DNA of 64,000 nt. It comes from Candidatus Spongiisociaceae bacterium (GTDB lineage Bacteria; Actinomycetota; Acidimicrobiia; Spongiisociales; Spongiisociaceae). Made by a program: the position numbers and the translations under genes. The stretch spans positions 3,488,001 to 3,552,000 of the forward strand of contig CBDCOH010000002.1 of assembly GCA_965219685.1 (NCBI GenBank), given 5' to 3'. The stretch's first letter is position 1; the number at the start of each line of letters is the position of its first letter. Positions 12,930 to 56,062 of this stretch are shown here, in pieces. The notes beneath the pieces were generated by a model. That model saw only the letters and a list, made by a program, of their open reading frames with translations. It did no database searches and was not told the DNA's origin.

Positions 12930-14168
12930 CTAGCGGGAGAGGGTGGCGCGCAGTCGGGGAGTCGACAGCACCACCAGGATTATGACCAGGGCGGGACCCG
13001 CAGCCACCAGGTTGAGCAGGGCGTACCCGACAGCGCTCAGCAGCAGTCCGGCGCTCAGGCTCCCGAGCATCACCATGGTCCAGATGGCCGAATCCGCCCA
13101 TCCCTCCACCACTTGGCGAACCTGCGACGGGGAGGAGGCGAACAGCATGGAACTGCCCGCCACGAAACTGAAACTCCATCCCAGCCCCAGCAGGAACAGA
13201 CCGGCTCCCAGTAGCCAGTTGCTCTCGTACGGGGCGGTTCCGGACACGAGCAGGGAGGCCCAGGTCACCACCGCTCCGATGCCGAGGGAAGGCAGGTATC
13301 CGATGCGGTCCACCAGCCTTCCCACCAGGGGAGCGAAGGCGAACATCCCCAATGCGTGGACGGAGAGCACCAGGCCCACGCTGTCGAGACCGTAGCCCGC
13401 ATCCTCGATGCGGAGCGGAGTGGTCGTCATTACCAGGACCATCGCCCCCTGTGCCGAAAGCAAGGCCAGGATCGACAGCTGTACCGCCGGAAGCCGCAGC
13501 GCCGGGCCGGCGGAACGCGTGGAGGTTGCCGCCTGATGCGCTGTGACGGCCACACGGGAAGGATCGGGTCGGAGAGCCGTCAGGAAGAGCAGCCAGCAGA
13601 GCAGGAACGCAACCACCGCGAGCAGGAAGGCGCCTCCGTAAGGGGTACCCAACCAGTCCTCTGTCACCCGACCCACGCTGTCCACGAGGTTGGCGCCGAC
13701 CAGGGATCCGATCGTGCCCGACCAGACCAGGATCCCCACAGCCCGGCCCCGCCGGTGGTCCTCGGCGAGTTCGGCTGCCGCATACCGGGTCAGATGGATG
13801 GCTCCCAGGCCCCCTCCCACGAACACGGCTCCGCCCACCAGCAGCCAGTACCATCCGAGCACCACCCCGAGGAGTTCCAGGGTGGCTCCCAGTGCCGAAA
13901 CCGGCGGGCCCACAAGCATGATGAAACGGCGCCCACGGCGAGCGCTCAACCTCCCCAGGAGATTGGTCCCGAGAGCCTGACCCAGCGCGCCGGCCGCCAG
14001 GGGGAAGCCGGCGATCACGGTCGACCCGGTCAGGGAGCGGGCCGCCACAGTGGCAACCGTCAGCGTCGCTACGAAAGCGGTCCAGCCCAGCACCGCACCA
14101 GAGAAGAGAACATAGACCAGCCGACGACGAATGGAGGCGAGACGGGTGTCGGGAGTCTGAGATACCAC
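12930..14168 (-). CDS. MFS transporter
   Basis: About 12 hydrophobic segments; GRLSARRGRR and GRLVDRIGY loop motifs; start approximate. Confidence 0.9.
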   Translation of the reverse strand: MVSQTPDTRLASIRRRLVYVLFSGAVLGWTAFVATLTVATVAARSLTGSTVIAGFPLAAGALGQALGTNLLGRLSARRGRRFIMLVGPPVSALGATLELLGVVLGWYWLLVGGAVFVGGGLGAIHLTRYAAAELAEDHRRGRAVGILVWSGTIGSLVGANLVDSVGRVTEDWLGTPYGGAFLLAVVAFLLCWLLFLTALRPDPSRVAVTAHQAATSTRSAGPALRLPAVQLSILALLSAQGAMVLVMTTTPLRIEDAGYGLDSVGLVLSVHALGMFAFAPLVGRLVDRIGYLPSLGIGAVVTWASLLVSGTAPYESNWLLGAGLFLLGLGWSFSFVAGSSMLFASSPSQVRQVVEGWADSAIWTMVMLGSLSAGLLLSAVGYALLNLVAAGPALVIILVVLSTPRLRATLSR

Positions 14169-14299
14169 TCGACACCGGAGTGTATTACGTACGCATCGCG
14201 GCCGGAAACGGCGACGAGGACGCCGAAGTCGGCGGAGGGAGCCACTGCCGCTTCTCGAATCCAATACGATCTCGTAGGGCCTCACTCAGGTTCTGTATC

Positions 14300-14585
14300 C
14301 CTGGTCAACCCGGCCGGGGACGCTATCACCGCCGCGCTTCCCAGCAACAACACACGCCGCGAGCACCACCCCGCCCTGCCACATGCAGACGTAGCGGCCA
14401 GCATCGCCACCATCCGAGCCTCAGCCGCCCACCCAACCACCGTCCTCGCGTTCGAGTTCCTGGTACCCACAGCCTGCCGCTCCGGTGAGTACGAGGCGCC
14501 CATTGGGACGGGATGGACCTAGACACAGCCACATGGACGATCCTTTCCTCCCGCATCAAATCCGCCCGCGAACATCGCGTTCGGT
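14300..14585 (+). pseudogene. Tyrosine integrase fragment (P4-like), frameshifted
   Basis: NPAG...HHPALP..V...LAFEFLVPTACRSGE, then after a frameshift DLDTATWTI...RIKSAREHRV. Confidence 0.8.
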
Positions 14586-14607
14586 CGGGAGTGCGTCTCC
14601 TGTGGGT

Positions 14608-15633
14608 TCAGTTCTGTTCGTTCCACAGCCGTGCTCGGGTCATGAACACAGTCGGGTCGTTCCGCCAATCGATGAAGTCGATACGGTTGCCGTCGGTGAC
14701 CCAGTCGATTCTGCTGTCCAGACAGCGGACAAGATCAACGTCGCCGGCAGCGGCCGCGAAGCCGCCCCGCTCCTCGCTGCTGGTGTCCACCGCTGTGACC
14801 ACCAAGCCACCACCCGACGCGTCGGCTGTGTCGCTGTTGCCGATAACACCGCGTGCTATCCCGTCGATCCGGCCTTCGGCCAGAGCGGTGATCAACTCGG
14901 CCTCGCCCCCGCTGTCGCCCATGTACCGGACCTGGGGCATCTCCCCCGACGCGGGATACAGATACGAACGCTGTTCGAGGCCGGGAGAAGCCCCCGCCGC
15001 GTGGATGAAGAAGGCATCAGAACCGTCAGCCGTCACCGTCCCGGCGGGTGTGGCTATCCGAACGCCCTCTGCCAGCACCCCTTCTTCGTTCGTGATGCCA
15101 GCCAAGACCAGTAGACGGGCCTCGCCGGTCGTGGCCCGCAGAACGCCGATCACCACGTCGGAACTCAGATCCGAATGGGTCGCGAACCGCTCCGCGTCCC
15201 CGGCCCGGACGAGGAGGGATTGGCTGAACGTGATGTGGCCCTTCGTGAAGCTCACCACCACGTTGCCTGCGTCGTCGCGGGTTCGGGACTCGAGGATCGT
15301 TATACCCCCGCCCACGATGTCAAAGTCCGCTTCGGCGGGCCGAAGCCAGATATCGTCCCAGCGCTGGAGCCCGTGACGCTCGAACGTCAGACCAGTGTCG
15401 TCCATGGCCTCGACCGCGGTCAACAAGTCGGCTTCGTAGCCCAGATGGACGTCGAACCCGCCATCGTCGGGACCTGCGGCAGCGCTGTAGCTCACCGGCT
15501 TGAAGTAGGCGTAGAACCCCACATCGAGAACCCGCCCCGTGCTCGGACATCCCGACACATCCGCGGTACCACAACCAGACACCACGACCACCACCAAGAC
15601 CAACGCGAGCACCGCCGCCCTGCGGGACTTCAC
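14608..15633 (-). CDS. Extracellular solute-binding lipoprotein (family 3-like)
   Basis: Signal with VSGC lipobox; VGFYAYFKPVSY, GYEADLL, DIVGGGITILESR motifs. Confidence 0.8.
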   Translation of the reverse strand: MKSRRAAVLALVLVVVVVSGCGTADVSGCPSTGRVLDVGFYAYFKPVSYSAAAGPDDGGFDVHLGYEADLLTAVEAMDDTGLTFERHGLQRWDDIWLRPAEADFDIVGGGITILESRTRDDAGNVVVSFTKGHITFSQSLLVRAGDAERFATHSDLSSDVVIGVLRATTGEARLLVLAGITNEEGVLAEGVRIATPAGTVTADGSDAFFIHAAGASPGLEQRSYLYPASGEMPQVRYMGDSGGEAELITALAEGRIDGIARGVIGNSDTADASGGGLVVTAVDTSSEERGGFAAAAGDVDLVRCLDSRIDWVTDGNRIDFIDWRNDPTVFMTRARLWNEQN

Positions 15634-16145
15634 GAACGAAAGGCCAGAACCGGGCACCGCACCCCTAACCACACCGATCGGGACACATCGTATCGGACAG
15701 CCCCACCCGGCTGGCACACGGCAAGCCCTCGCCGGGGATGAACCGGATCACAAGACCACGAAGACGTTGCCGCCCCCCAAAGCTAAGGAACCCGACTGGA
15801 CGCTGATCTCAACCCGCACCCCCCCAACGTTCTGGAACGACTCGCCCCCAGCAATCACATGCCGGAACTCCGTTCGCGACCGGTTCGGAACCCGAACCTA
15901 CCGGCTGACCCGGCGGAAAACCTCAAGGAATCGACACCGATGGTCCATGTCCGTGTCGACGCGGATCCAAGCCCGACGGTGGTGTTCTGACGGATCAGCT
16001 AGCCCCCGCCACCGAACGGCGGATCAAGGGCCGGGACGGGGAGTAGCCGGAGGCCACAGAATGTCAATCGGTACCCGGGAGGGCCCTATCCCTCGTACCA
16101 CTTCCCTACCCTCGTCGTTCTGGGAGGGACAACGGACGCTACAGG

Positions 16146-16235
16146 CGGAGGGAGTGGGATTCGAACCCACGAGGCGCGGTACGCGCCAACACGCTTTCCA
16201 GGCGTGCGCACTAGGCCAGACTATGCGATCCCTCC
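16146..16235 (-). tRNA. tRNA-Ser(GGA)
   Basis: GGAGGGA acceptor; CACGC CTGGAAA GCGTG anticodon arm; long variable arm; GGTTCGAATCC. Confidence 0.97.
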
Positions 16236-27011: not shown

Positions 27012-29132
27012 ATGACCACCCCCAACACCTTGACGCATCTGCGCCAGTACCCGCTGAGCCGGACACGGAACATCGGGATCATGGCTCATATCGACGCGGG
27101 CAAGACCACCCTCACCGAGCGCATCCTCTACTACACGGGCCGGACCTACAAGCTGGGCGAGGTCCACGAGGGCGCCGCGGTCATGGACTGGATGGAGCAG
27201 GAGCAGGAACGGGGCATCACCATCACCTCCGCCGCCACGACCTGCGAGTGGTACGGCCACTGGATCAACATCATCGACACGCCCGGCCATGTGGACTTCA
27301 CCGTCGAGGTGGAGCGTTCCCTCCGGGTACTGGACGGCGCGGTGGCGGTCTTCGACGCGGTGGCAGGAGTGGAGCCCCAGTCCGAGACCGTATGGCGCCA
27401 GGCCGACCGATACAGCGTGCCCCGCATCTGCTTCATCAACAAGATGGACCGGGTCGGGGCCGATTTCTTCGCGGCGGTTGATTCGATCGAGGAGCGCCTC
27501 GGCGCCGTACCGATGATCATGCAACTCCCCATCGGGGAGGAGACCGGCTTCACGGGTGTCATAGACCTGATCGAGATGGTCGCCCACACCTGGAAGGGCG
27601 ACGACGGGCGCACCTGGAACACCGGCCGGATCCCCCCCGAGTACGCGGTCCTCGCCGACGAGTACCGCGGGCAACTGGTCGAGCAGGTGGCCGAGATCGA
27701 CGAGAAGCTACTCGAGAAGTACATAGAGGACCTCGACATCTCCCCGGGCGAGATCACCAGCGCCGTCCGGGCCGGCACCCTCCAGCATCTGTTCACCCCG
27801 GTGTTCTGCGGCTCGGCCTTCCGCAACAAGGGCGTGCAGTTGCTGCTGGACGCGGTGGTCGCGTACCTCCCCAGTCCGGTGGACGTCTCCGCCATCCAGG
27901 GGTTCCTGCCGGACGACTGCCGGGGGCCCGTCACGCGTGCACCTGACGACAGCGAGCCATTCGCCGCGCTCGCCTTCAAGATCGTCAGCGATCCCCACGT
28001 CGGCAAGCTCACCTACTTCCGGGTCTATTCCGGCCACGCCCCCAAGGGCGGGAGGGTCATGAACTGCACCAAGGGCCGCAAGGAGCGCTTGGGCCGCCTG
28101 CTCCGGATGCACGCCAACCACCGGGAGGACCGCGACGACGTCTTCGCCGGCGACATCGTGGCGGCGGTCGGACTCAAGCACACCGCCACCGGGGACACCC
28201 TCTCCGCGATGGGCCATCCCGTCCTGCTCGAGGCCATGAGCTTCCCGGCCCCCGTCATCTCGGTGGCCATCGAGCCGCGGTCCAAGGCCGACCAGGAGAA
28301 GCTGTCGGAGTCGCTCGCGCGGCTGGCCGAGGAGGATCCCACCTTCCTGGTGCGCATCGACCAGGAGACCGGCCAGACGATCATCTCCGGCATGGGGGAG
28401 CTCCACCTCGACATCCTGGTCGACCGCCTGGTCCGGGAGTTCAGGGTCGATGCCAACGTGGGCCGTCCCCAGGTGGCCTACCGGGAGACGATCAGGGGTC
28501 CGGTCCGACGCGTGCAGTACCGCCACGTCAAGCAGACGGGCGGCAAGGGCCAGTTCGCGGTGGTCAAGGTGGATCTCGAGCCCACGGGCCCGGGAGGCGG
28601 CTACGAGTTCGTGGACGAGATCAAGAGCGGGGCGGTCCCCCGCGAGTTCATCCCCTCGGTCGATGCGGGCATCGAGTCGGCGCTGGACCAGGGAGTGCTG
28701 GCGGGCTACCCGCTGGTCGACGTGCGGGCCCGCCTCGTGGACGGCCAGTCCCACGATGTGGACTCCTCCGAGATGGCGTTCCGCATCGCCGGTTCGATGG
28801 TGCTCAGGGAGGCCGCCCGCCGGGCCGGCGTGAAGCTCCTGGAGCCGGTGATGGAGGTCGAGGTGGTCACGCCCGAGCAGTACATGGGCGAGGTGATCGG
28901 CGACCTGTCGTCGCGGAGGGGACGCATAGGCGAGATGGGTCAGCGTGGGAACAACCGGGTCATCAACGCCCGGGTTCCCCTATCGGAGATGTTCGGCTAT
29001 GTTACCGATCTGCGGTCCAACACCCAGGGCCGTGCCACGTCGAGCATGCAGTTCCACTCGTACAACGACGTACCGGATCAGGTTTCCCAGCGCATCGTCG
29101 CCTCGGTGCGCGGCGAGTACATAGGAGGTTGA
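27012..29132 (+). CDS. fusA: Elongation factor G
   Basis: [32 protein letters not shown]. Confidence 0.99.
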
Positions 29133-29138
29133 CACACC

Positions 29139-30326
29139 ATGGCTAAGGCGAGGTTTGAGCGGGTTAAGCCGCATGTGAATGTTGGGACTATGGGTCATAT
29201 TGATCATGGTAAGACGACGTTGACTGCTGCGATTACTCGGGTGTTGTCTGAGCGGGTGGCTGGGAATACGTTTACGGTGTTTGATGAGATTGATAAGGCG
29301 CCGGAGGAGCGTGAGCGGGGTATTACGATTGCTATTGCGCATGTGGAGTATGAGACTGTGGGTCGTCATTATGCGCATGTGGATATGCCGGGGCATGCGG
29401 ATTATATCAAGAATATGATTACGGGTGCTGCTCAGGTGGATGGTGCGGTGTTGGTGGTGTCGGCGGCTGATGGTCCGATGCCTCAGACGCGGGAGCATGT
29501 GTTGTTGGCGCGTCAGGTGGGGGTGCCTTGTATTGTTGTGGCGTTGAATAAGGTTGATTTGGTGGATGATGAGGAGTTGTTGGAGTTGGTGGAGTTGGAG
29601 GTTCGGGAGTTGTTGGATGATTATGGGTTTCCGGGGGATGACGTGCCGGTGGTGCCGGTGTCGGCGTTGGCGGCTTTGGAGGGGGATGAGGCTGCTGCGG
29701 GGGGTGTGCTGGAGTTGATGGATGCGGTGGATTCGTATGTTCCGGTTCCGGACCGTCCGGTGGATCGGCCGTTTTTGATGCCGATCGAGGATGTGTTTTC
29801 GATTACTGGTCGGGGGACGGTGGTGACTGGGAAGGTTGAGGCTGGGGTGGTTCATGTGGGTGATCCGGTTGAGGTGGTGGGGATTCGGGAGACTCGTCGT
29901 ACGGTGGCGACGGGGGTGGAGATGTTCCGTAAGTTGTTGGATGAGGGTCGGGCTGGTGACAATGTGGGGGTGTTGTTGAGGGGGGTGCGCAAGACGGAGG
30001 TGGAGCGGGGTCAGGTGTTGGCTGCTCCGGGGTCGATCACGCCGCATACTGGGTTCGAGGCTCAGGTGTATGTGTTGACTAAGGATGAGGGTGGTCGGCA
30101 TAATCCGTTTTTTGCTGGGTATCAGCCGCAGTTTTATTTCCGTACGACGGATGTGACTGGTCGGGTTGCGTTGCCTGATGGGGTGGAGATGGTGATGCCG
30201 GGTGATAACACTCGTATGTCGGTGGAGTTGGGTTCGGCTATTGCTATGGATGAGGGGTTGCGGTTTGCGATTCGTGAGGGTGGTCGTACTGTGGGTGCGG
30301 GCACTGTCACCAAAATCACAAAATAA
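29139..30326 (+). CDS. tuf: Elongation factor Tu (extreme G/T-rich codon usage)
   Basis: [33 protein letters not shown]. Confidence 0.99.
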
Positions 30327-30376
30327 CCGGAAGAACACAGGGCCGTCGAGCACTCAGGAACCAGCGAGAAAGCGTC

Positions 30377-30685
30377 ATGAAAGAACCAAGGATCCGGATC
30401 AAACTAAAGGCGTACGACCACCAAGTGGTGGACGAGTCTGCGCGCAAGATAGCCGAGACCGTGATCCGCACCCAGGCGATAGTCCACGGTCCGGTCCCGC
30501 TTCCCACCAGGGTCCATAGGTACTGCGTGATCCGTTCGCCTCATGTCTACAAGGACTCTCGCGAACACTTCGAGATTCGTACCCACAAGCGGCTTATCGA
30601 CATCCTCCGCCCCACGCACAACACAATCGAGTCGCTGATGCGGCTCGACCTTCCGGCGGGGGTGGAAGTGGAGATCGAGACATGA
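30377..30685 (+). CDS. rpsJ: 30S ribosomal protein S10
   Basis: [29 protein letters not shown]. Confidence 0.99.
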
Positions 30686-31323
30686 GCCCGGCCGCGATCC
30701 TCGGCGAGAAGGTGGGCATGACCCGCATCTTCGACGACCAGGCGCGTGCCATCCCCGTGACCGTCATCAAGGCCGGCCCCTGCCACGTGACCCAGATCCG
30801 CACCGAGGAGACCGACGGGTACGCCGCCGTGCAACTCGCCTACGGCAGCATCAAGCCCCGCGGGGCCAACAAACCGGCTGCCGGGCACTACGCCAAGGCG
30901 GGGGTCGAGCCGGCGCGCCACCTTCTCGAGGTTCGGGTGGACGACGTCGACGGGTTCGAGCTAGGCCAGAAGCTGCGGGTCGGCGACCTGTTCGTCGCCG
31001 GCGGCAGGGCGGACGTGACCGGCGTCTCCAAGGGCAAGGGTTTCCAGGGAGTCATGAAGCGTCACAACTTCCACGGCCAAGCCGCCAGCCACGGCGCCCA
31101 CAAGGTCCACCGGGCACCCGGCGCCATCGGCGCGTGCGCCACGCCGGCCCGGGTCTTCAAGGGCACCAAGCTGCCCGGCCGCATGGGCGGCGAACGAACC
31201 ACCGTCCTGAACCTCGTGGTGGTCGGGGTGGACACCGAGCGCGACCTCCTGGTGCTCCAGGGCGCGGTGCCCGGGCCCAAGGGCGGCCTGGTCTTCGTGC
31301 GGGAGGCGGTGAAGAGTGGCTGA
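30682..31323 (+). CDS. rplC: 50S ribosomal protein L3
   Basis: [20 protein letters not shown]. Confidence 0.99.
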
Positions 31324-52161: not shown

Positions 52162-52313
52162 ACCACGAGGGAACTTCAGCGCTTTGTCATGGCAGGGCGG
52201 TAAGATGAACTTGAGGCTGTAAGTTGCTTCGGGTCACCGAGGTGCATCGGTCCAACCATCGCCAGGGTCGAATCCCGCTCGCAGGGGTCGACCCTGGTTG
52301 ACGTCTGGCATGT

Positions 52314-53063
52314 CTACGGCCAAAGCATCCGCCAGGTACGGCGCTGGTACTTGACGTGGTCATCGAATAGTTTCCTCACAGCGGTGTCCGATCGTGGATC
52401 GCTCGGGCGGTGTCGGATACGTAGGCGCCGATTGAGGATGAACGCGACGAGATCGGCTAGCTGGATTCCTCTGTTTCGGTCCGATCGATCGAAGTAGACA
52501 TTGTCGACTACGTGGTCGAGCGGGATGTTGATCCCACTAGGCGCACCGATCCGCCCACCAAAGGCCTGCATCTCACTAATCAGATCCAGGGAGAACTGCT
52601 CCTGTTCCTGGTTCTCATCCGCTACCAGGAGCGCCCGCTGGCTAAGGCAGTTTTCTTGTTAACCTAGCCACTGCTCCAGCTTCTCTGTGAGAAACTGAAG
52701 GGCGAAACCATGGGGGTTCGGACTGTCGTAACCACGCGCAGCAAGTCCTTGCTTGTTGATGGATGCGTAGGCGACGCCCGCATCGACATGTCCCAAGACA
52801 GAGAGAGCCCTGGAGTACTGATCGATCCGTTGCCGAGGCGTAATCCCCTCCCATACGCCTGAACCACCGAAGAGTTCTTGACCGTGGTACTCGGTCAGTT
52901 TCTCTCTGGTAGGGGCTCTCGCAGCGAGATCGTCGAGTCGCTGGGACATCTCCTGGATACGATCCTCGCGAACCATCACAGCGACGAGTACGTGAAAGGG
53001 CTGGTCGGGATCACCGAGTTGACGGCCCGTGTTCCCCGACTCGTCGAGATAGCAGATGATCAT
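52314..53063 (-). pseudogene. DUF3800-like protein interrupted by an in-frame TAA
   Basis: YLDESG N-terminus and IQLADLVA C-terminal motif; the frame continues unshifted across TAA at 52659-52661 (EQWLG*QENCLSQRALLVADE). Confidence 0.8.
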
Positions 53064-53227
53064 CCGATCCTGCTCCTGCTGCTAGATTCCGTTGTGTACA
53101 TACTAATGACACAGGGCATAGATTGTTAACACTAGTCACTCTGTGAGTAGACGAGCGACGAACGGATTTGCCGCGGCCTTGCCGTTCCTTGCCGCCTAGA
53201 CTGGGCCTGACAACCGGATCGGGAGAT

Positions 53228-53372
53228 CTTTGAAGCGCCTGGCCCCGACCCTGGTCGGGGTGACGAGGAAGAGGGATTATCGAAACTTTCGGCGGATGCC
53301 CTCTCGGCTGTCCACGGTCGTGACGGTTCGGGTCAAAAGCCCCGGGTGACCGGGGTGACAGAGCCCGGATCG
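53228..53372 (+). ncRNA. glmS glucosamine-6-phosphate-activated ribozyme
   Basis: Conserved core AGCGCC-hairpin-GACGAGG..GGGATTATCGAAA.TTTCGGCGGATGCCC upstream of glmS. Confidence 0.93.
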
Positions 53373-53567
53373 ACGTGGAGTCCCGCCGGTCCGCGCCCAG
53401 CGGCCGGACGCGGGACCGCATGCCTCCCCCGCCACCCCGCGAGGGATGCGACGGGGCGGGCGGCACGATCCGAGGTACGGGCCTGCCGATGCGGGTTCCC
53501 CGCCTCACCCTCCTGATCGGTGAGCGGAATGCGGGTGTCCCGCATGCGGATGATCGAGGAGGACGGC

Positions 53568-55406
53568 ATGTGCGGAATCGTCGGCTACGTAGGCCCCAGA
53601 TCGGCGCAGGAGGTCCTGGTCCGGGGGCTGCGCCGCCTCGAGTACCGGGGTTACGACTCGGCGGGAGTGGCGGTGGCCCACAACGGCTCGGTGGCGGTGT
53701 CCAAGGCCGAAGGCAAGCTGGACCGGTTGGTGGCCCGCCTGGAGGAGGCGCCGCTGCGGGGGCGGTCGGGGATCGGCCACACCCGCTGGGCCACCCACGG
53801 TGTTCCGTCGGACCGCAACGCCCACCCCCACACCGACACCACGGGGGACTTCGTGGTGGTCCACAACGGGATCGTCGAGAACTACCGGGAGTTGCGCAGC
53901 GAGCTGGAGGCCGCGGGGGTCCGTTTCCGGTCGGAGACCGACACCGAGGTGCTGGCGCACCTGGTGGCCGCGGTCTACGACGGCGACCTGAAGGAAGCGG
54001 TGCGCACGGCTATCGCCCGGGCCTCCGGGGCCTACGCGCTGGTGGCGATGACCTGCCACGAGCCGGGTCGCATCGTGGCCGCCCGGATGATCAGCCCTCT
54101 GGTGGTGGGACTGGGCGACGGTGAGACCTTCCTGGCCTCCGACATGCCGGCGGTGCTGGACTACACCCGCCGCTTCCTGATCGTCGAGGACGGCGAGATC
54201 GCCGAGGTCACCGTAGACGGCGTCACCATCGAGACGCTCGACGGCGACGCGGTCGAGCGTTCTCCCTTCACGGCCCACTGGGACACCGACTCGGTGCAGA
54301 AGAGCGGCTTCGACCACTTCATGCTCAAGGAGATACACGAGCAGCCCGAGGTCATCGCCCGGACGCTGGGCGGCCGTCTGCGCGAGCACCCCGGCGGCGC
54401 CGCCGAGACGGCTCTCGACGAGCTCTCGTGGGTGCGGGGCGACCCCGCCGACGTGGACAAGATCTGGATCACCGCCTGCGGGACCGCCTACCACGCCGGT
54501 GTGGTGGGCAGGGCCCTGTTCGAGCGTCTGGCGGCCATCCCCACCGAGGTGGCCTACGCGCACGAGTTGCGCTACAGCAACCCCCTGATCAGGGAGGGAT
54601 CGCTCGCCCTGGCCATAAGCCAGTCCGGGGAGACCGCCGACACCCTGGCCGCGGCCCGTCTGGCCCGCCGGGAGGGCTCCTCCCTGCTGGCCCTGACCAA
54701 CGTGGTCGGCTCCAGCCTGGCCAGGGAGGCGGACGACGTCCTGTACACGTGGGCCGGGCCCGAGATCTCGGTGGCGTCCACCAAGGCATACCTGGCCATG
54801 CTGGTGGGGGAGAGCCTGCTGGCGATCTGGCTGGGACGGGCGAGGGGCGTCCTGGACCCGGGCGAGGAGCGGAGGCTGGCCGCCGAGTTGCGCACCCTCC
54901 CCGGGAAGGCCGAGTCGATACTCGGGGACCTGGACAGGCCGCGCCGCCTCGCCGCGGATCTGGCCCGGGCCGTCGGCATCTACTTCATAGGCCGGGGCCT
55001 CGACTACGCCACCGCCATGGAGGGCGCTCTCAAGCTCAAGGAGATCTCCTACATCCACGCCGAGGCGATGCCGGCCGGCGAGCTGAAGCACGGGACGCTG
55101 GCATTAGTCACCGAAGGGACGCCGGTGGTGGCGGTCGCCACCCAGCAGGACGTGCAGTCCAAGATGCTCCTCGGCCTCCAGGAGGTGAAGGCCCGGCGGG
55201 CCACGGTCATCGCCGTCGCCTACGAGGACGACGACGAGATCGGGCTGGTCGCCGACCACGTCCTGCGCATCCCTCGCACTGCCGACGTTCTCTCGCCGAT
55301 CCTGGCCGCCATCCCCCTCCAGCTGCTCGCCTACTACACGGCCCGCCGACTCGGTCGCGACATCGACCAGCCCCGCAACCTGGCCAAGAGCGTCACCGTG
55401 GAGTGA
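53568..55406 (+). CDS. glmS: Glutamine--fructose-6-phosphate transaminase
   Basis: MCGIVGY, LEYRGYDSAG, GHTRWATHG, SQSGET, PRNLAKSVTVE. Confidence 0.99.
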   Translation: MCGIVGYVGPRSAQEVLVRGLRRLEYRGYDSAGVAVAHNGSVAVSKAEGKLDRLVARLEEAPLRGRSGIGHTRWATHGVPSDRNAHPHTDTTGDFVVVHNGIVENYRELRSELEAAGVRFRSETDTEVLAHLVAAVYDGDLKEAVRTAIARASGAYALVAMTCHEPGRIVAARMISPLVVGLGDGETFLASDMPAVLDYTRRFLIVEDGEIAEVTVDGVTIETLDGDAVERSPFTAHWDTDSVQKSGFDHFMLKEIHEQPEVIARTLGGRLREHPGGAAETALDELSWVRGDPADVDKIWITACGTAYHAGVVGRALFERLAAIPTEVAYAHELRYSNPLIREGSLALAISQSGETADTLAAARLARREGSSLLALTNVVGSSLAREADDVLYTWAGPEISVASTKAYLAMLVGESLLAIWLGRARGVLDPGEERRLAAELRTLPGKAESILGDLDRPRRLAADLARAVGIYFIGRGLDYATAMEGALKLKEISYIHAEAMPAGELKHGTLALVTEGTPVVAVATQQDVQSKMLLGLQEVKARRATVIAVAYEDDDEIGLVADHVLRIPRTADVLSPILAAIPLQLLAYYTARRLGRDIDQPRNLAKSVTVE

Positions 55407-55660
55407 GTGGTGAGTAGTGAGTAGTGAGTAGTGAGTGGTGATTGGTTAGAACTCCACCATTCACCATTCACCATTCACCATTCACCATTCACCATTCACC
55501 ATTCACCATTCACGATTCACCATTCACGATTCACCAACCCACCATTCACGATTCACCATTCACGATTCACCATTCACGATTCACCATTCACGATTCACCA
55601 TTCACGATTCACCATTCACCATTCACCATTCACCATTCACCAACCCACCAACCCACCATC
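55404..55660. repeat. Bipartite inverted heptamer array: (TGAGTRG)x~6 facing (CACSATT)x~29
   Basis: Starts at the glmS stop; second arm 55455-55660 mixes CACCATT, CACGATT and CACCAAC. Confidence 0.97.
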
Positions 55661-55672
55661 TAGCCTGAATCC

Positions 55673-56062
55673 ATGCGCATCATCGGGCTGGGTGTGGACC
55701 TGGCCGACATATCCCGGATCGAGCGGGTGCTGGCCCGCTATCCCCGGTTCGCCCGGCGCTGCTTCACCACCCACGAGCGGGAGTACGCCGAGCGGTTCGC
55801 CCGGCCTTCCCGCCGCTACGCAGCCCGGTTCGCAGGCAAGGAGGCGGTGATGAAGTCGCTCGGCACCGGCTACCGCAGGGTGCGCTGGACCGACATCGAG
55901 ATCACGGGAGGGGGCAAACCCACCGTGAACCTCGCCGGGACCGCCGCGGCCCGGGCCGGACATCTCGGCGTCACCCATGTCGAGGTCGCCATCACCCACA
56001 CCGACACCGAGGCACTGGTGTTCGCGGTGGCGCTCGGTGAGCATCACGCGGAGCAAGCCTGA
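55673..56062 (+). CDS. acpS: Holo-ACP synthase
   Basis: GLGVDL, AARFAGKEAVMKSLGTG, ITH. Confidence 0.95.
   Translation: MRIIGLGVDLADISRIERVLARYPRFARRCFTTHEREYAERFARPSRRYAARFAGKEAVMKSLGTGYRRVRWTDIEITGGGKPTVNLAGTAAARAGHLGVTHVEVAITHTDTEALVFAVALGEHHAEQA

Follow-up and report, generated by a model that had tools for sequence, protein, structure and literature searches.

In the chromosome of a Candidatus Spongiisociaceae bacterium (Acidimicrobiia), tuf, the gene encoding elongation factor EF-Tu, ends nearly all of its codons in G or T. This bias is best read as the product of strand-polar, keto-biased gene conversion acting on long-lived repeats, with tuf as its most extreme product here, a reading to which we assign a probability of roughly 60%. 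The window analysed is a stretch of 64,000 nucleotides (G000:C2:3488001-3552000, G000 being the source genome, 4.42 Mb in size with 65% G+C), in which the fusA-linked copy of tuf occupies positions 29139-30326 of the forward strand, between fusA and rpsJ. The skew is expressed below as K3, the share of G+T at third codon positions, where K stands for the keto bases (G or T) and M for C or A.

Among the 396 third positions of tuf, 226 are G, 151 T, 15 C and 4 A (57/38/4/1%), which gives a K3 of 0.95, compared with 0.44 in fusA, 0.47 in rpsG, 0.48 in rpsJ, 0.38 in rplC and 0.47 in rplD, rplW and rplB, neighbouring genes in which about 50% of third positions are C and about 5% are T. The abrupt switch to T/G-ending codons reported in a preliminary description of this DNA, made from the letters alone, is therefore confirmed (0.95 versus 0.38-0.48); its hand counts are exact (3 C and 20 T at 29581-29640, 20 C and 7 T at 28321-28380 in fusA), and the product is indeed an intact EF-Tu of 395 amino acids (aa). 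The G+C share at third positions (GC3) is 0.61 in tuf versus 0.91 in fusA, and T at third positions (T3) rises to 38%. Leu is encoded by TTG in 26 of 27 cases, and 2-fold pyrimidine codons mostly end in T (GAT 25 versus GAC 3 for Asp, CAT 11 versus CAC 0 for His, TAT 8 versus TAC 0 for Tyr), that is, codon choice maximises G+T wherever the amino acid permits. On the scale of the 4.39-Mb chromosome, tuf is the G+T maximum in 600-base windows (0.735, with a mean of 0.499 and a standard deviation (sd) of 0.037, i.e., 6 sd above), its whole-gene G+T share being 0.70, and it is the single outlier in T3/(T3+C3) among 2936 non-overlapping open reading frames (ORFs) of at least 200 aa. The next values of this ratio (at most 0.65) belong to ORFs whose GC1/GC2/GC3 pattern (G+C at the three codon positions) suggests off-frame reading, and the ORFs other than the two tuf copies with K3 of at least 0.8 had a wrong-frame look, as judged by eye, and were rejected.

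The edges of the skew are sharp. fusA (27012-29132, +), which belongs to the same operon, has ordinary codons (C3 52%, T3 5%) up to its end, and rpsJ (30377-30685, +), the downstream flank, is likewise ordinary. Within tuf, the skew extends from codon 2 to codon 387 (about position 30299). The saturated part (29139-30299, +; codons 1-387) has a K3 of 0.97 and retains 11 C-ending codons, 10 of them at 2-fold pyrimidine sites, whereas the 3' tail (30300-30326, +) has the opposite composition, with C or A ending 8 of the last 9 codons (stop counted). The preliminary description had placed the skewed stretch at 29139-30300, of which the start stands and the end is corrected to codon 387, followed by the C/A-ending tail.

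A second tuf copy lies downstream of tRNA-Tyr/Thr/Met at G000:C2:2697911-2699108 (-), about 820 kb from the fusA-linked one and 99.9% identical to it. The repeat common to both (29134-30331 in the window, +) extends over 1198 bp, of which a single one is mismatched, and reaches 5 bases beyond the gene on either side (before the ATG and past the stop codon), so that the second near-identical tuf considered in the preliminary description does exist; an ordinary, unskewed tuf was looked for in G000 and none was found. The fusA-tuf arrangement recurs in relatives, and the two copies are 98.7-100% identical in all 20 relatives where both are readable, with repeat borders running from 15-0 bases before the ATG to 1-89 bases after the last codon. 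The 5' untranslated regions (UTRs) of both copies are unskewed (G+T share 0.30-0.54), that of the tRNA-linked copy being C/A-rich (0.30-0.46), which indicates that the skew belongs to the repeat and not to the transcript. Judging from their identity, the copies appear to be held identical by gene conversion. Of 42 inter-copy differences in 16 genomes, 15 make the tRNA-linked copy the K-richer one and 9 the fusA-linked copy, while 18 are of other kinds, so that no clear source copy of the conversion emerges from them. G000 holds one rRNA operon only and thus no rRNA repeat to compare; tuf may be the most extreme product of the biased conversion in this genome because it is the only old dispersed repeat pair identified there.

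The assembly around tuf was checked against contigs from sequencing runs, the check covering the parts that contigs reached and setting aside the small-share RNA runs X19 and X20. The fusA/tuf junction is bridged by contigs from runs of three studies (X1, X5 and X6): one X1 contig spans 28600-29393 with 0 differences (and 30298-30900 is also covered with 0 differences), an X5 contig spans 28614-29393 with 3 differences, and an X6 contig spans 28600-29213 with 6 differences. Short "joints" inside tuf in the aligned contigs had sides of less than 31 letters or low depth, and were taken as coming from other organisms or repeats.

Comparison with other genomes links the skew to the copy state of tuf. 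The nearest named relatives are Acidimicrobiia. Of the 29 genomes from the same order that carry a tuf of full length, 19 have a K3 of at least 0.84, 4 lie at 0.68-0.73 and the remaining 6 do not exceed 0.56; the skew is found across Acidimicrobiia and in some other Actinomycetota. In the class sample, all 15 single-copy tufs have a K3 of 0.39-0.52, while 22 of the 23 genomes with two copies reach 0.64-0.94. The lone exception (G105) carries copies that are just 85% identical and both ordinary, and in G186, where the copies are 89% identical, their K3 values are 0.65 and 0.52. Among genomes with a match to the repair enzyme NucS (NucS+), K3 is at least 0.6 in 45 of the 47 with near-identical (verified) or equal-scoring tuf copies and in 1 of the 12 with single or diverged ones. 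On an EF-Tu tree of these 59 genomes, this two-copy state changes 10 times, and 6 of 7 independent pairs on supported branches differ as expected, with none opposed (sign test, median p 0.03). These results support an association of the skew with repeats kept identical by gene conversion, and the suggestion of a repeat-associated process with directional gene conversion in the preliminary description is in line with them.

The same bias occurs in repeats that have nothing to do with tuf, and its sign depends on the direction of replication. Cumulative GC skew places the origin of G000 at about 3.46 Mb and the terminus at about 1.15 Mb, and both tuf copies are co-directional with replication. 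Several lipoprotein genes of G000 carry their entire mature domain twice, in tandem and in frame (frames confirmed by the Pfam domains Fasciclin, Peripla_BP_4 and PBP_like_2). Within the repeats, K3 is 0.76 for co-directional units of 924 bp, 0.72 for co-directional units of 858 bp and 0.79 for a co-directional 676-bp repeat in a giant gene, as opposed to 0.06 in the head-on Fasciclin gene and 0.30 in head-on units of 1006 bp. For the Fasciclin (FAS1) ORF, whose part outside the repeat lies mostly upstream of the likely start, the contrast inside the gene is weak and only the sign of the skew is used, and no orthologue of it was found in 24 relatives at E <=1e-15. Tandems of G000 that have diverged to 85-92% identity show no skew in either orientation (two of them are co-directional and in a clear frame; the frame of the 86% one is doubtful). 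Among relatives' homologues of the 924-bp gene, which are binding proteins, the 4 with a tandem duplication have a K3 of 0.77-0.84 versus 0.40-0.47 in the 6 with a single unit. For the orthologue of the head-on gene, K3 is 0.18-0.31 across seven genomes of the genus, one of them G000, whereas in G013 (96% aa identity) it is co-directional and has a K3 of 0.65. The leading strand in relatives was deduced from flanks of 70-100 kb with the gene masked, an approach that was correct as to sign for 39 of 39 100-kb windows of G000; the sign of the skew agrees with the leading strand in 8 of 8 cases in relatives, although orthologues within a genus are not independent and the separate events are fewer than these 8. 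Polarity thus follows the direction of replication and not the gene's own transcription, and the sign flip in G013 is hard to explain by codon preference, message properties or transcription of the gene itself. The check proposed in the preliminary description, whether skew coincides with other multi-copy DNA, has a positive outcome in these tandem duplicates of G000 and relatives, which at the same time contradict its term "locus-targeted". As a separate measure, strongly skewed 300-bp regions were multi-copy in 109 of 173 cases compared with 12 of 173 controls, most being insertion sequences (IS), HNH genes and low-complexity Thr/Pro/Gln-rich coding sequence with a C/A-rich coding strand in either orientation; this count was dropped as support.

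A second kind of polarity exists inside tuf itself. In a codon-by-codon alignment of tuf genes, saturation always runs 5' to 3' from codon 2 up to a lineage-specific front, located at about codon 45 in G031, 160 in G004, 240 in G019, 300 in G021 and G022, about 355 in G014, 370 in G009 and 388 in G000, and nearly the whole gene is saturated in G005, G006 and G029. Beyond the front the composition is not ordinary but opposite, with a C/A-rich zone of up to about 100 codons in relatives: the last 48 tuf codons of G004, G024, G023, G019 and G022 have 17-29% A, 44-64% C and 10-33% G at third positions, compared with 0-4% A and 40-50% G in ordinary tufs. The 27-base 3' tail of tuf in the window is a remnant of this zone.

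The bases that replace C and A are informative about the process. Where all five ordinary tufs carry C at a 4-fold site (18 sites), G and T are equally frequent in G000 (9 each), and G stands at 15 of these sites in G009. When G004 is compared with a congener, the 4-fold differences between M and K bases comprise 22 C/G, 22 C/T, 7 A/G and 6 A/T. At residues that do not vary among ordinary tufs, the skewed lineages carry 35 changes to G or T in the first or second codon position (14 A>G, 13 A>T, 4 C>G and 4 C>T), 14 to C or A and 13 neutral ones, with 13 amino-acid-changing A>T steps versus 2 T>A. Standing variation has G<->T exchanges as its main type, at 16 of the 42 inter-copy differences in 16 genomes and, across 28600-30900, at 67 of the 122 positions that vary in contigs from four runs. 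We conclude that the target of the process is G or T and not T alone, and that transversions are as frequent as transitions.

These data bear most directly on the strongest competitor, namely deamination of single-stranded DNA (ssDNA) during recombination or replication. In such a scenario, C-to-U and A-to-hypoxanthine changes would arise on the leading-sense strand, exposed either while serving as template for the lagging strand or in a 3' tail formed at a break, and would be spread by gene conversion. The direction is as expected, with G+T raised on the leading strand in the sign of the genome-wide skew; changes at 2-fold sites are necessarily C-to-T; the loss of coding C on the left and of coding G on the right would fit 3' tails on either side of a break; and in the available text of PMC11109965, deletion of nucS in a Streptomyces is reported to raise A>G and C>T changes on the leading strand. 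Against it stand the equal numbers of transversions and transitions at 4-fold sites, even within a genus, the excess of A>T amino-acid steps, and inter-copy and inter-strain variation that is mainly G<->T instead of C<->T. Residual C in the tuf of G000 also sits at 2-fold and not at 4-fold sites (10 of 82 versus 1 of 207 in alignment codons 1-380; Fisher p 1.9e-5), and two uracil-DNA glycosylase (UDG) genes are present in this genome. Furthermore, 10 genomes in which neither NucS nor MutS was found have concerted tufs and no skew, though ssDNA should be equally frequent in them. A search for a YwqJ-type deaminase (PF14431) gave no match; one for a DddA-like deaminase (PF14428) also gave none, but its control matched in no genome, which makes this search uninformative. 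The C-to-T and A-to-G deamination proposed in the preliminary description is hence not supported, considering that C became G as often as T at 4-fold sites, that A>T is about as common as A>G, that variation is mostly G<->T and that the 3' end is opposite in sign, and we regard deamination as an unlikely explanation of the skew.

Transcription-associated mutagenesis, in which the exposed non-template strand of tuf, possibly in self-reinforcing R-loops, would decay towards G+T, agrees with a G/T-rich coding strand and with saturation that is strongest at the 5' end. It is nevertheless very improbable, given that fusA in the same operon is unskewed up to the ATG, that the tRNA-linked 5' UTR is C/A-rich, that the 15 single-copy tufs of the class are ordinary, and that head-on duplicates are C/A-rich on their coding strands, with one orthologue flipping together with its orientation. 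EF-Tu is generally among the most highly expressed proteins, and its codons here maximise G+T where allowed (e.g., TTG for Leu), both of which could speak for selection on the tuf message or its decoding, whether for a weakly folding G+U message, for escape of a C-poor one from RNase E or Rho, or for a special codon preference. T-ending codons, however, are read by the same GNN tRNAs through wobble, and no gain in decoding is expected. The highly expressed neighbours (fusA and the ribosomal-protein genes), which the preliminary description had proposed as a comparison, are ordinary; the skew is absent from the 15 single-copy tufs, from diverged duplicates and from the 10 two-copy genomes without NucS; it is opposite at the tuf 3' end; and unrelated duplicated genes share it with a sign set by replication direction, all of which leaves selection an equally slight chance. 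Horizontal transfer from a lineage with T/G-ending codons or a chimeric assembly would account for the abrupt change at the gene borders, but EF-Tu identity falls off as kinship becomes more distant (genus 97%, family 83-93%, order 76-81%), flanks and gene order are native in all relatives, a genome with such codon usage was not seen among 80 named loci, and the junction is bridged by contigs from three studies, so that an old and widespread skew of this kind excludes, for practical purposes, a foreign donor, a chimera (both considered in the preliminary description) and a single burst of mutation.

With strand-polar, keto-biased gene conversion as the favoured reading, the following course of events may be proposed. 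Where two copies differ, the allele with G or T in the leading-strand sense would beat the allele with C or A, and over the long term every free site of the repeat would be filled with G or T on the leading strand. The bias would override the genome's preference for C-ending codons and push some amino-acid changes. With both tufs co-directional, the coding strand would become G/T-rich, and in head-on repeats it would become C/A-rich. In a heteroduplex of a resident and an imported strand, only an imported A or C opposite a resident C or A would escape correction or rejection by NucS, whereby C/A would accumulate on the imported (lagging-sense) strand, and G/T would be retained or increase on the resident leading-sense one. 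The resident strand might be the leading-sense 3' tail left after a fork break, or the imported strand might anneal to the lagging-strand template. The upstream end of a repeat would lie most often in such a 3' tail, and the downstream end would more often be copied from the donor and annealed back; a tail upstream together with an annealed donor copy downstream is proposed to yield the front and the 3' end of opposite sign.

NucS/EndoMS is the candidate agent of the bias, with chances that we consider about evenly balanced. G000 has a NucS match (PF01939, 120.5 bits) and no match in a MutS profile search (PF00488). According to the accessible part of PMC8228993, NucS/EndoMS prefers mismatches of the G-T, G-G and T-T types over A-C, on which its activity is weak or absent; it curbs homeologous recombination, and its strand choice is listed as open. 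The accessible part of PMC11551744 reports that in Mycolicibacterium smegmatis, edited survivors are rarer by orders of magnitude when the oligonucleotide forms a dG-dT mismatch than when it forms dA-dC, and that mispairs on which NucS is active undergo near-100% repair in short patches sparing a site 5-6 bp away. The substrate classes of the enzyme split the four bases exactly as the skew does, which is a match of patterns and not an assay, and while the known functions of NucS are the correction of replication errors and the restraint of homeologous recombination, its role in conversion is what we infer here. Two-copy genomes reach a K3 of at least 0.6 in 45 of 47 cases with NucS versus 3 of 21 without it, so that NucS is present in 45 of the 48 such genomes above this threshold; its state changes just twice on the EF-Tu tree. 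The 10 genomes lacking a detectable NucS and MutS, which belong to 8 families outside Acidimicrobiia, have tuf copies of 99.7-100% identity and a K3 of 0.38-0.46. In the NucS+ families f55 (4 genomes) and f87, copies of about 100% identity have a K3 of 0.68-0.79, and an f55 member with a single tuf has 0.43. G329, also NucS+, has copies of 96.8% identity and a K3 of 0.58, and the MutS-bearing family f59 ranges from 0.41 to 0.65. NucS was detected in 3 of 7 genomes of family f8 (57-93% complete; K3 0.53-0.81), and family f5 (G028 and G039) has an ordinary tuf and no NucS was found in it. A wider statement, that NucS, being blind to A-C, C-C and A-A, imposes a keto-biased, replication-polar conversion drive on every long-lived repeat wherever organisms rely on it, in Actinomycetota and possibly also in Archaea using gene conversion, is offered tentatively, with somewhat less than an even chance of being right.

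Several observations weigh against this reading or against the place given in it to NucS. The direction and the mechanism are deduced from composition alone. The NucS link is phylogenetically thin, with 2 independent pairs and no significance, and the EF-Tu tree itself may be bent by the bias. The MutS-bearing family f59 reaches a K3 of 0.61-0.65 in 3 of 8 genomes, and in genus g14, whose genomes are 72-85% complete, K3 varies between 0.53 and 0.81 in a way unrelated to NucS detection. G298 is NucS+ and its tuf copies are 99.5% identical, yet its K3 is 0.43; this could be a recent duplication, as three other genomes of the family have one tuf copy. Among the other repeats of G000, exact head-on tandem units of 1031 bp and 927 bp show no skew, and repeats of at least 300 bp are mostly mildly skewed (mean deviation 0.047 versus 0.024, with 3% above 0.15). 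The orthologue of the head-on gene in G002 yielded one unit only and still has a K3 of 0.28. In addition, long-term C-to-T change combined with genome-wide GC pressure could also turn 4-fold sites into G, and through this route the transversion evidence weakens deamination without excluding it.

Known systems share individual traits with the tuf skew. Concerted evolution of tuf duplicates by gene conversion has been described in six phyla including Actinobacteria (PMC6053082, in the text available), and conversion between the Salmonella tuf genes is reported, in the available portion of PMC5485169, to start uniformly and to run both ways, unlike the 5'-to-3' front and the strand bias seen here. 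The papers on tufA and tufB concern homogenisation, whereas the present case concerns a change of base composition; the accessible text of PMC6053082 contains "GC content" 0 times and "codon" once. As with tufA/tufB of Salmonella and Escherichia coli, the two copies occupy the classic fusA-tuf (C2:3517139, +) and tRNA-tuf (C2:2697919, -) contexts, identity is 98.7-100% within each of 20 genomes versus 76-97% at the protein level between them, and it is confined to the coding region. GC-biased gene conversion comes from a bias in the repair of heteroduplex DNA, which acts like selection and alters base composition in frequently recombining regions. Such a bias, working against codon preference, is likewise proposed here, but it sets G+T against C+A on one strand instead of G+C against A+T on both, GC3 falls from about 0.9 to 0.61, and the sign depends on orientation. 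Replication strand skew, by which the leading strand is richer in G and T, has the same sign and the same reference strand; its genome-wide excess is 1-5%, unlike the 0.95 at third positions of tuf, and the excess described here is confined to repeats. Fungal repeat-induced point mutation (RIP) and kataegis act on duplicated DNA or recombination intermediates and mark one strand coherently. Duplicated DNA is also the substrate here; unlike in RIP or deaminase clusters, the genes are intact (EF-Tu and the Pfam domains), transversions are about as frequent as transitions, and the change is slow rather than a single burst. GC-biased gene conversion, replication skew, RIP and deaminase clusters each fail in at least one defining feature tested, and codon-usage selection would be common to highly expressed genes and independent of copy number, whereas the neighbours and 15 of 15 single-copy tufs are ordinary.

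The literature searched (with subscription journals and supplementary files outside it) did not turn up a G+T bias described for tuf or for concerted repeats, a conversion bias attributed to NucS, or a lasting compositional drive on repeats. Keto-biased conversion would be a second kind of biased gene conversion, setting keto against amino bases in a strand-polar manner, and a non-adaptive force would override codon usage, and partly protein sequence, in EF-Tu. If the NucS drive is true, it would recode the most conserved and most expressed protein gene, alter some of its amino acids and flip sign upon inversion, and the substrate range of a repair enzyme could be read straight from genome composition. 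The bias may bear on codon-usage indices, on the prediction of expression, on composition-based detection of horizontal transfer, and, through convergent amino-acid shifts, on tuf/EF-Tu as a phylogenetic marker. The front and the opposite 3' end would record where heteroduplex forms and on which strand, so that comparative genomics could test how NucS chooses its strand and what geometry gene conversion has in bacteria.

Some further observations concern tuf genes elsewhere. A single tuf is carried by each of the 10 examined Acidimicrobiia genomes that gave no NucS match; of the 29 examined with matches to both NucS and tuf, 23 have two tufs, and in another one an intact copy is accompanied by a broken one. 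In G232-G235 of genus g14 (L188-L192), the second tuf is split by frame breaks or a stop into two or three fragments, and G232 has three tuf versions with K3 of 0.52-0.90; the split genes could be broken copies, long-read errors or mixed bins. Two contigs of metagenome-assembled genomes labelled Wenzhouxiangella and Thiogranum (Gammaproteobacteria) have tufs with a K3 of 0.73 (L034) and 0.65 (L039), most of the Proteobacteria listed lying at 0.40-0.57, and a milder bias may exist in duplicated tufs of MutS-reliant lineages.

Other repeats of G000 also deserve mention. At least 9 lipoprotein genes, mostly for solute-binding proteins, have a tandem-doubled mature domain with units of 85-100% identity, and relatives' orthologues share the duplication; these genes include L194:522-2975 (-), L195:514-2580 (-), L196:471-2711 (-) and L193:515-1873 (-), as well as G000:C2:1822985-1825234, 428611-430986, 4304561-4306810, 4163785-4165767 and 2378544-2380610. 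On the 30-kb second contig, a duplicated stretch of 99.8% identity contains a 402-aa ORF without Pfam match (L197:664-1872, +, equal to G000:C1:4663-5871, with a copy at C1:24816-26024), 88% of whose codons end in A or C (A3 31%, C3 57%), a mirror of tuf. Two giant, internally repetitive ORFs, C2:172364-196114 (+, 7916 aa) and C2:2993780-3016438 (-, 7552 aa), are both co-directional and have K3 values of 0.66 and 0.63, with a genome mean of 0.47 and an sd of 0.05.

Within the window, a 457-aa ORF lies antisense across tuf (28980-30353, -), which is not a gene call and stays open because the sense codons of tuf almost never end in A (A3 1%). Elsewhere in the window, positions 13201-16200 show a strong skew of A over T (0.24-0.34), positions 52201-53400 have a G+C content of 0.57-0.60, and positions 55201-55800 combine low GC with a GC skew of -0.275.

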